Part shown: piece by piece, positions 1 to 632 of the stretch | Layout of the letters: each line of letters opens with the position of its first letter | Position numbering within the stretch: the first letter of the stretch is position 1 | DNA from: Escherichia coli | GTDB lineage: Bacteria > Pseudomonadota > Gammaproteobacteria > Enterobacterales > Enterobacteriaceae | Reading direction: 5' to 3' (one strand) | DNA length: 632 bases | Assembly (NCBI RefSeq): GCF_003334335.1 | Contig: NZ_QOWQ01000165.1 | Notes under the pieces: model-generated | What the model was told of the DNA's origin: nothing | What the model saw: the letters and a program-made list of their open reading frames with translations, nothing else | The model's database searches: none | Program-made: the position numbers and the translations under genes

Positions 1-632
1 GAGATTGACAACAGTCAGCTGAAGGACGAGATGGCGGAAATGCAGACCACCATCACAGAAACCCGCAATGAAATCACGCAGACGGTCAGTAAAACGCTGG
101 AAGACCAGAGCGCCACCATACAGCAGATACAGCGCGTGCAGAAGGACACAAATGATGACCTTGCTGCACTTTACATGCTGAAGGTACAGAAAACAAAAAA
201 TGGCATACCCTATGTTGCCGGTATTGGAGCGGGGATTGAGGATACTGATGGCCAGCCCCTGAGCAACATACTGCTGCTGGCTGACCGTATTGCGATGATT
301 AACCCGGAGGACGGCAACACCACGCCGTTATTTGTGGCGCAGGGGAATCAGTTGTTCATGAACGATGTGTTCCTGAAGCGGCTGTTTGCGGTGAGTATCA
401 CCTCGTCCGGCAATCCCCCGACGTTTTCCCTGACGCCGGAGGGCAGGCTGACCGCAAGAAATGCTGATATCAGCGGTAACGTGAATGCGAATTCCGGGAC
501 GCTCAACAACGTCACGATTAACGAGAACTGTCGGGTTCTGGGAAAACTGTCCGCGAACCAGATTGAAGGCGATCTCGTTAAAACAGTGGGCAAAGCTTTC
601 CCCCGGGACTCCCGTGCACCGGAGCGGTGGCC
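1..632 (+). CDS. J: Phage tail tip attachment / host specificity protein J (central tail fibre), internal fragment, partial at both ends; reading frame 1 with first full codon at nt 1, last full codon ending at nt 630
   Basis: Seen in sequence: frame 1 is open for 210 codons with no stop; codon usage is G/C-rich at third positions as in enterobacteria. Recalled homology, not a database search: the translated segment VAGIG...[20 protein letters not shown]...[42 protein letters not shown] closely resembles the corresponding region of lambda gpJ (recalled as ...[59 protein letters not shown]...[43 protein letters not shown]...AAFPRQ), roughly the last third of a ~1100-aa protein. The only competing ORF is a short antisense one. 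Confidence 0.88.

Follow-up and report, generated by a model that had tools for sequence, protein, structure and literature searches.

Modular exchange of the C-terminus of the tail tip protein J, together with switching among porins, is textbook biology of lambdoid phages, and known receptors in the family of homologous J receptor-binding domains (RBDs) are all trimeric porins. The J protein of phage 434 binds OmpC. Lambda J (8xck, 8xcj) binds LamB. Phage 21 also has LamB as its native receptor, but the single change I1025T opens the use of OmpC, while OmpF needs further changes (PMC11336670). Residues I1025 and V1026 of phage 21 lie on the axis of the trimer and immediately precede the RBD (PMC11336670). 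Chimeras A8 and 1A2 were made by Brodel et al. (Nature 2024, PMC11338833), who joined C-termini of gpJ variants from natural prophages to lambda J at aa 964. The A8 allele, natural in Stx1a phages, Lys8385Vzw, 2H10 and PhiR70_1, binds OmpC, and 9wcb presents A8 gpJ bound to OmpC of EDL933.

The stretch of DNA studied here, referred to as the window, is 632 nucleotides long. Its frame 1 is uninterrupted over all 632 bases (ORF check), and positions 1..632 of the plus strand correspond to codons 831-1040 (plus 2 nt) of a 1156-aa lambda-type tip attachment protein J (gpJ). This assignment is based on the open frame, complete DNA matches, the family profile and gene context. Window DNA is 100% identical to annotated gpJ of E. 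coli JE86-ST02 and of several other E. coli chromosomes, and the isolated phage PhiR5_1 matches it at 99.5%. The gene order around J in JE86-ST02 is that of the canonical tail cluster, H-M-L-K-I-J-lom-stf, and the annotation of PhiR5_1 agrees with it. Full-length J reaches 2318.7 bits with the NCBIfam model NF049904 lambda_TipJ (curated cut-off 1950 bits), covering residues 1-1156, and its C-terminal part is composed, in order, of PF24421, PF24489 (two Ig/FNIII domains), PF09327 and PF12421. Beyond the window end 116 codons of J are left, fewer than the ~ 130-150 proposed in the original prediction. The RefSeq label of the gene, “phage attachment tail tip protein J”, names no receptor. Both strands of the window were scanned for non-coding features, and no promoter-like or terminator-like sites and no repeats were detected; an Rfam scan of the window returned a single sub-threshold match (E = 0.53). 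An 81-aa open reading frame on the minus strand (348..593, TTG start) is wholly within J and has no support as a gene.

The window can be divided into consecutive structural segments, all on the plus strand. According to alignments, nt 1..180 (approximate limits) belong to the alpha-helical shaft (AHS) region of the central fibre, of the phage-21 type. This shaft is 24 aa longer than that of lambda, seen as a 24-residue gap in the lambda sequence, and it shares 7-20% aa and 12-38% DNA identity with lambda and 58% aa identity with phage 21, which makes it the least lambda-like part of the window. The AHS of lambda comprises residues 841-861 (PMC11101478), and its counterpart by alignment is window aa 36-56. 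Because part of the lambda shaft refolds into beta-strands on triggering, the roughly three extra heptads of this shaft may affect the length of the fibre or the triggering. The central straight fibre (beta-prism) domain, PF09327 Phage_Tail_Tip (J 870-997, Pfam E = 8e-23), occupies nt 118..501 and is 68-71% identical in aa sequence to those of lambda, 434, 21 and A8. The DNA identity profile defines a conserved block, nt 451..531, which ends in Cys177 (codon nt 529-531) and is the natural crossover zone for the 3′ cassette. It is followed by post-Cys junction strands on the distal trimer axis (nt 532..585, J 1008-1025), which were located by alignment and because PF09327 ends before them and PF12421 starts after them. 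In the alignment, L1022/V1023 of the junction (nt 574-579) are opposite I1025/V1026 of phage 21. The remaining nt 586..632 encode the first 15 residues of the Ig-like RBD, PF12421 Ig_GpJ_C, which spans J 1026-1156 and model positions 1-135 of 135 (E = 4e-37). The first hypervariable loop of the RBD opens at about nt 607 (DSRAPERW), in the last eight codons of the window.

Along the window, identity to lambda J changes from block to block: 7%, 20%, 50%, 67%, 77%, 85% and then 39%. The 85% block is formed by the 27 residues preceding Cys177, and the 39% block (13/33) by the segment flagged in the original prediction, window aa 178-210. The drop is significant in Fisher’s test, both against the preceding 27 aa (p = 0.0005) and against the whole fibre block (p = 0.002). 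Conservation had been described as decaying toward the 3′ end, where receptor binding should begin. The fall after Cys177 holds, but there is no simple decay, since the profile runs low-high-low and aa 1-60 are the least similar to lambda. Likewise, the RBD does begin near the 3′ end, at nt 586, but it is preceded by the junction strands, which take up the first 18 residues of the flagged segment (nt 532-585). The lambda counterpart given in the original prediction (TINGTLRAEKIVGDIVKAASAAFPRQRESS) is indeed lambda J 983-1012, and the skeleton G.L.A..I.GD.VK....AFPR shared by the flagged segment and lambda is exact. The original prediction was conditional on divergence carrying on into the C-terminal domain, and it does: the downstream 116 residues are 41% identical to lambda J, compared with 74% for J 1-830. 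A C-terminus nearly identical to that of lambda would have indicated LamB, and the value found over J 1008-1156 is 41%.

Comparison with other J genes discloses the nature of this step. J genes of 2G7b, PPompW_EH1846, ZJ3920 and GPEC874 share DNA identity of 0.91-1.00 with the studied gene from about nt 451 to the stop codon, and only 0.12-0.77 upstream of nt 451. Within nt 451..531, identity to these four climbs from 0.53-0.77 to 0.93-0.94. The mirror pattern is observed between lambda and 434, where DNA identity is 0.92-1.00 up to nt 450, 86% over nt 451-531, and 0.36-0.61 after the Cys; at the protein level, the shaft and fibre are 95-97% and the part after the Cys 36-40% identical. The A8 chimera, by design, shows the same step when compared with lambda. 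As DNA identity changes in the conserved block nt 451-531 in several J genes, this block is recognized as the crossover zone. These alignments identify the change at the Cys as a boundary between modules that lambdoid J genes have in general. Extra crossovers exist within the junction, nt 532..585, as in P0008, in which an A8-like junction is followed by the RBD of the studied allele.

The 450-bp 3′ cassette was found in 3350 of 5426 complete E. coli genomes (~ 62%), and 3321 records have a best identity of at least 90%. The complete window reaches 95% identity in only 525 records, so the cassette is much more widespread. Carriers of the allele include many Stx2a and Stx1a prophages, and the median is 2 copies of the allele per genome. 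Many database “proteins” with this C-terminus are frameshifted or fused translations (P0022, P0023, P0031, P0041, P0044, P0070, P0091, P0116). These translations and the median copy number suggest that much of the allele abundance is probably in decaying prophages.

The cassette could be linked to a C-terminus with published receptor data. Chimera 1A2 carries the same allele, with 171 of 173 codons in agreement: 159 are exact and 12 more become identical after a single-letter OCR fix. In the same alignment, controls gave 75 (lambda) and 96 (A8) exact codons of 173. The two differences are at R1073, which is K in 1A2, and possibly at F1066, which is L in 1A2; PhiR5_1 carries K1073, as does 1A2. 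The 1A2 DNA was read from a machine-read (OCR) PDF supplement with dropped letters, and a frameshift-aware alignment was therefore used, plain tblastn HSPs being fragmented and misleading because of OCR frameshifts. The 1A2 cassette covers the whole flagged segment. Its fusion point, lambda aa 964, corresponds to G989 of the studied J (nt 475-477) and is thus inside the natural crossover zone, so that this zone coincides with the site chosen empirically by engineers. DNA of the 1A2 cassette is 68% identical to the natural allele (JE86-ST02 locus 6460-6981), while its protein is ~ 99% the same; this indicates that the cassette was recoded, although according to the methods it was amplified from genomes (PMC11338833). 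Apart from the recoded DNA, K1073 and possibly L1066, 1A2 differs in having the lambda shaft and fibre upstream, whereas the native ones are of the phage-21 type, and in the form in which it was examined, a DNA-delivery particle rather than a phage.

In an MG1655 host lacking both lamB and ompC, 20 of the 23 natural OmpC variants supplied in trans allowed 1A2 to turn 76-99% of cells GFP+, and permissive variants include G17 (PMC11338833), which is the OmpC variant of EDL933 according to the title of PDB entry 9wcb. With G1 (K-12 OmpC), G2 or G40, at most 2% of cells were GFP+ (PMC11338833). In this respect 1A2 differs from A8, which accepts K-12 OmpC. In wild-type LamB+ MG1655, delivery by 1A2 was 5.2%, compared with 97.7% for lambda-WT (PMC11338833). 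Since delivery reached 94-99% in the lamB-deleted host provided with permissive OmpC, and only 5.2% in LamB+ MG1655, K-12 LamB is neither sufficient nor necessary for 1A2. In a similar way, the values of at most 2% in an OmpF+ recipient with non-permissive OmpC indicate that OmpF is not used efficiently. These data, obtained with DNA-delivery particles of a lambda chimera, support the conclusion that the allele uses OmpC in a variant-specific manner, and neither K-12 LamB nor, efficiently, OmpF. We infer that the native phage behind the window uses OmpC likewise. The suggestion of a receptor other than LamB in the original prediction is thus borne out by published data on a nearly identical module (PMC11338833). 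A literature search for receptor knockouts with natural carriers of the allele (PhiR5_1, PhiR55_1, 2G7b, PPompW and Stx2a JNE phages) found none. In the data sheet for panel C of Extended Data Fig. 2 in the same study, “OmpC-EDL933” values of 1A2 and A8 are identical to those of panel B (OmpC-MG1655); this contradicts the main text and the G17 data of Extended Data Fig. 1, and is probably a copy error.

The fold of the module was compared with those of described J proteins. The best PDB sequence match is “A8 gpJ 713” (9wca/9wcb, E = 6e-112), with lambda J ranking behind. An AlphaFold2 model of J 999-1156 is all-beta (pLDDT 81.9), and its top four Foldseek matches are 9wcb, 9wca, 8xck and 8xcj, with TM of 0.76-0.79, while the next do not exceed 0.41. 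Identity of the RBD is ~ 61-64% to phage 21, 58-62% to A8, 41% to lambda and 39% to 434. A8 shares the RBD family and fold (TM 0.76-0.77), while its first loop is shorter by 4 aa and its second longer by 5-6 aa. Phage 21 J is the closest among natural phages with a genetically defined receptor, resembling the studied J in the long shaft (58%), fibre (70%), junction (88% over 17 aa) and RBD (about 61-64%); it differs in its native receptor. Lambda J is of the same family, with the same order of domains and the same RBD fold (TM 0.78-0.79), but it differs in RBD sequence, in binding LamB and in the shaft shorter by 24 aa. The J protein of 434 belongs to the same RBD family and has the same breakpoint at the conserved Cys in comparison with lambda, although it represents a separate allele lineage with longer loops. 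HK97, HK022 and Gifsy-1 J were considered as receptor references, but their C-termini have no homology to this RBD and are therefore uninformative. The long-tailed EHEC phage phi330, an OmpC user (PMC12502783), has a WGPS6-like RBD only 39% identical to the studied one and was not taken as evidence. GpJ tips in a 2026 receptor-screen preprint are of the Drexlerviridae type, a family other than this J.

Across alleles, column entropy peaks in four loops, J 1033-1041, 1070-1078, 1094-1105 and 1125-1133, which are likely to be the loops that contact the porin. Loop lengths were not decisive for a receptor call, being lambda-like in loops 1 and 2 and phage-21-like in loop 4. By analogy with 8xcj and 9wcb, a trimer of RBDs would dock on the trimeric porin.

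Taken together, the best explanation, to which we assign a probability of about 0.85, is that the flagged segment marks the boundary of exchangeable J modules and that the downstream cassette is the common OmpC-binding “1A2” allele, with a receptor other than LamB. The upstream module is the conserved beta-prism fibre, and the downstream cassette comprises about 18 junction residues and the 131-residue Ig-like RBD. Homologous recombination in the conserved block would swap the cassette among prophages, and such swapping would account for similarity to lambda collapsing right after the Cys. The cassette would bind trimeric OmpC, accepting most natural variants and refusing that of K-12, and LamB would remain unused. 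By analogy with the complexes of lambda with LamB (8xcj) and of A8 with OmpC (9wcb), the variable loops at the bottom of the three RBDs would enter the porin trimer. The RBDs would then splay, the fibre twist, the helical shaft flip, and the tail tube open for ejection of DNA. This triggering mechanism was shown for lambda (PMC11101478), and its operation in the studied J is presumed.

Alternatively, the drop could reflect ordinary drift in a less constrained part of J, with no functional meaning, as the original prediction also considered. RBD loops tolerate substitutions, and variation within the allele family is concentrated in the four loops, as drift would have it. However, the change is a step at one position and not a gradient, the 91-100% identical 3′ cassette is located behind upstream regions of only 12-77% identity, lambda and 434 show a step at the Cys as well, and receptor specificity changes with the cassette (PMC11338833). 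Drift is therefore excluded in favour of cassette exchange, with only a minimal probability left to it. Slightly better placed, yet still very unlikely, is the idea that the module continues to bind LamB despite its divergence, in an arms race on the same receptor with no switch. The RBD of phage 21 is only ~ 45% identical to that of lambda and nevertheless has LamB as native receptor (PMC11336670), and the studied RBD is closest to phage 21 (64%) among natural phages of known receptor. Because of this example, divergence alone does not predict a change of receptor, and reasoning in the original prediction was weaker than its conclusion. Against retention of LamB stands the behaviour of 1A2, which is poor in LamB+ MG1655, where lambda-WT is efficient, and efficient without lamB when permissive OmpC is given.

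A further alternative is that the native module uses another outer-membrane protein, OmpF or some other porin, in addition to or instead of OmpC, or that the R1073 form reads another set of OmpC variants, perhaps including that of K-12. Between one and a few mutations in J give lambda and phage 21 the use of OmpF or OmpC, and some of these changes are located in the junction aligned with nt 574-579 (PMC11336670). In addition, the R1073K difference is inside a hypervariable loop, the second one, and R1073 could shift the accepted OmpC variants relative to 1A2. On the other hand, low delivery of 1A2 into the OmpF+ recipient with non-permissive OmpC speaks against efficient use of OmpF, and PhiR5_1 has K1073, as does 1A2. 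We consider this alternative unlikely. In a related form, it is rather unlikely that the natural R1073 variant, in a phage-21-like J with a long shaft, has a receptor range different from 1A2, i.e. another OmpC subset or a second porin. If true, the commonest J tips of E. coli prophages would be finely tuned readers of OmpC variants, structuring prophage exchange between strains.

With the exchangeable, OmpC-binding cassette as the preferred reading, both the module boundary and the module itself are familiar: the boundary is well understood and the module already characterized, so the finding is correct but already known. Current understanding is unchanged by these results. Their practical value is in annotation, as the link with 1A2 makes it possible to assign a receptor to J genes of ~ 62% of complete E. 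coli genomes, namely variant-specific OmpC, but not the OmpC of K-12.

As a consistency check only, we note that PhiR5_1, a carrier of the allele, was propagated on E. coli C. OmpC of E. coli C (376 aa) is at its variable loops nearer to the EDL933 variant than to that of K-12, with EDL933-type loops GSVSGEGMTNNGR and KNLGVINGRNYDDED and an 8-residue insertion of its own (GSYTSNGVVRN). That E. coli C serves well as an indicator strain for ECOR prophages whose OmpC-reading J tips are not supported by K-12 may be due to this type of OmpC.

Genes downstream of J were also inspected. In the JE86-ST02 prophage with the exact match, side tail fibre genes located 3′ of lom are pseudogene fragments (locus 7799-8950 and 10192-11655), and because of this fragmentation the prophage may be defective. 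The broken fibre genes are followed by a gene for a YadA-like adhesin, likely a moron. At the equivalent place in PhiR5_1, the fibre gene is intact and is accompanied by a “putative adhesin/invasin”.

Finally, the fibre part of the window includes a segment related to phage defence. A peptide of lambda J, residues 902-933, activates HepS, an abortive-infection nuclease of the Gifsy-1 prophage (PMC13043305). Its homologue is found at nt 289-384 of the window (aa 97-128), and the HepS trigger residue F924 of lambda is kept as F949 (nt 355-357), while Gifsy J proteins have Ile. Based on conservation of this residue, the studied J is predicted to trigger HepS, unlike Gifsy J proteins.
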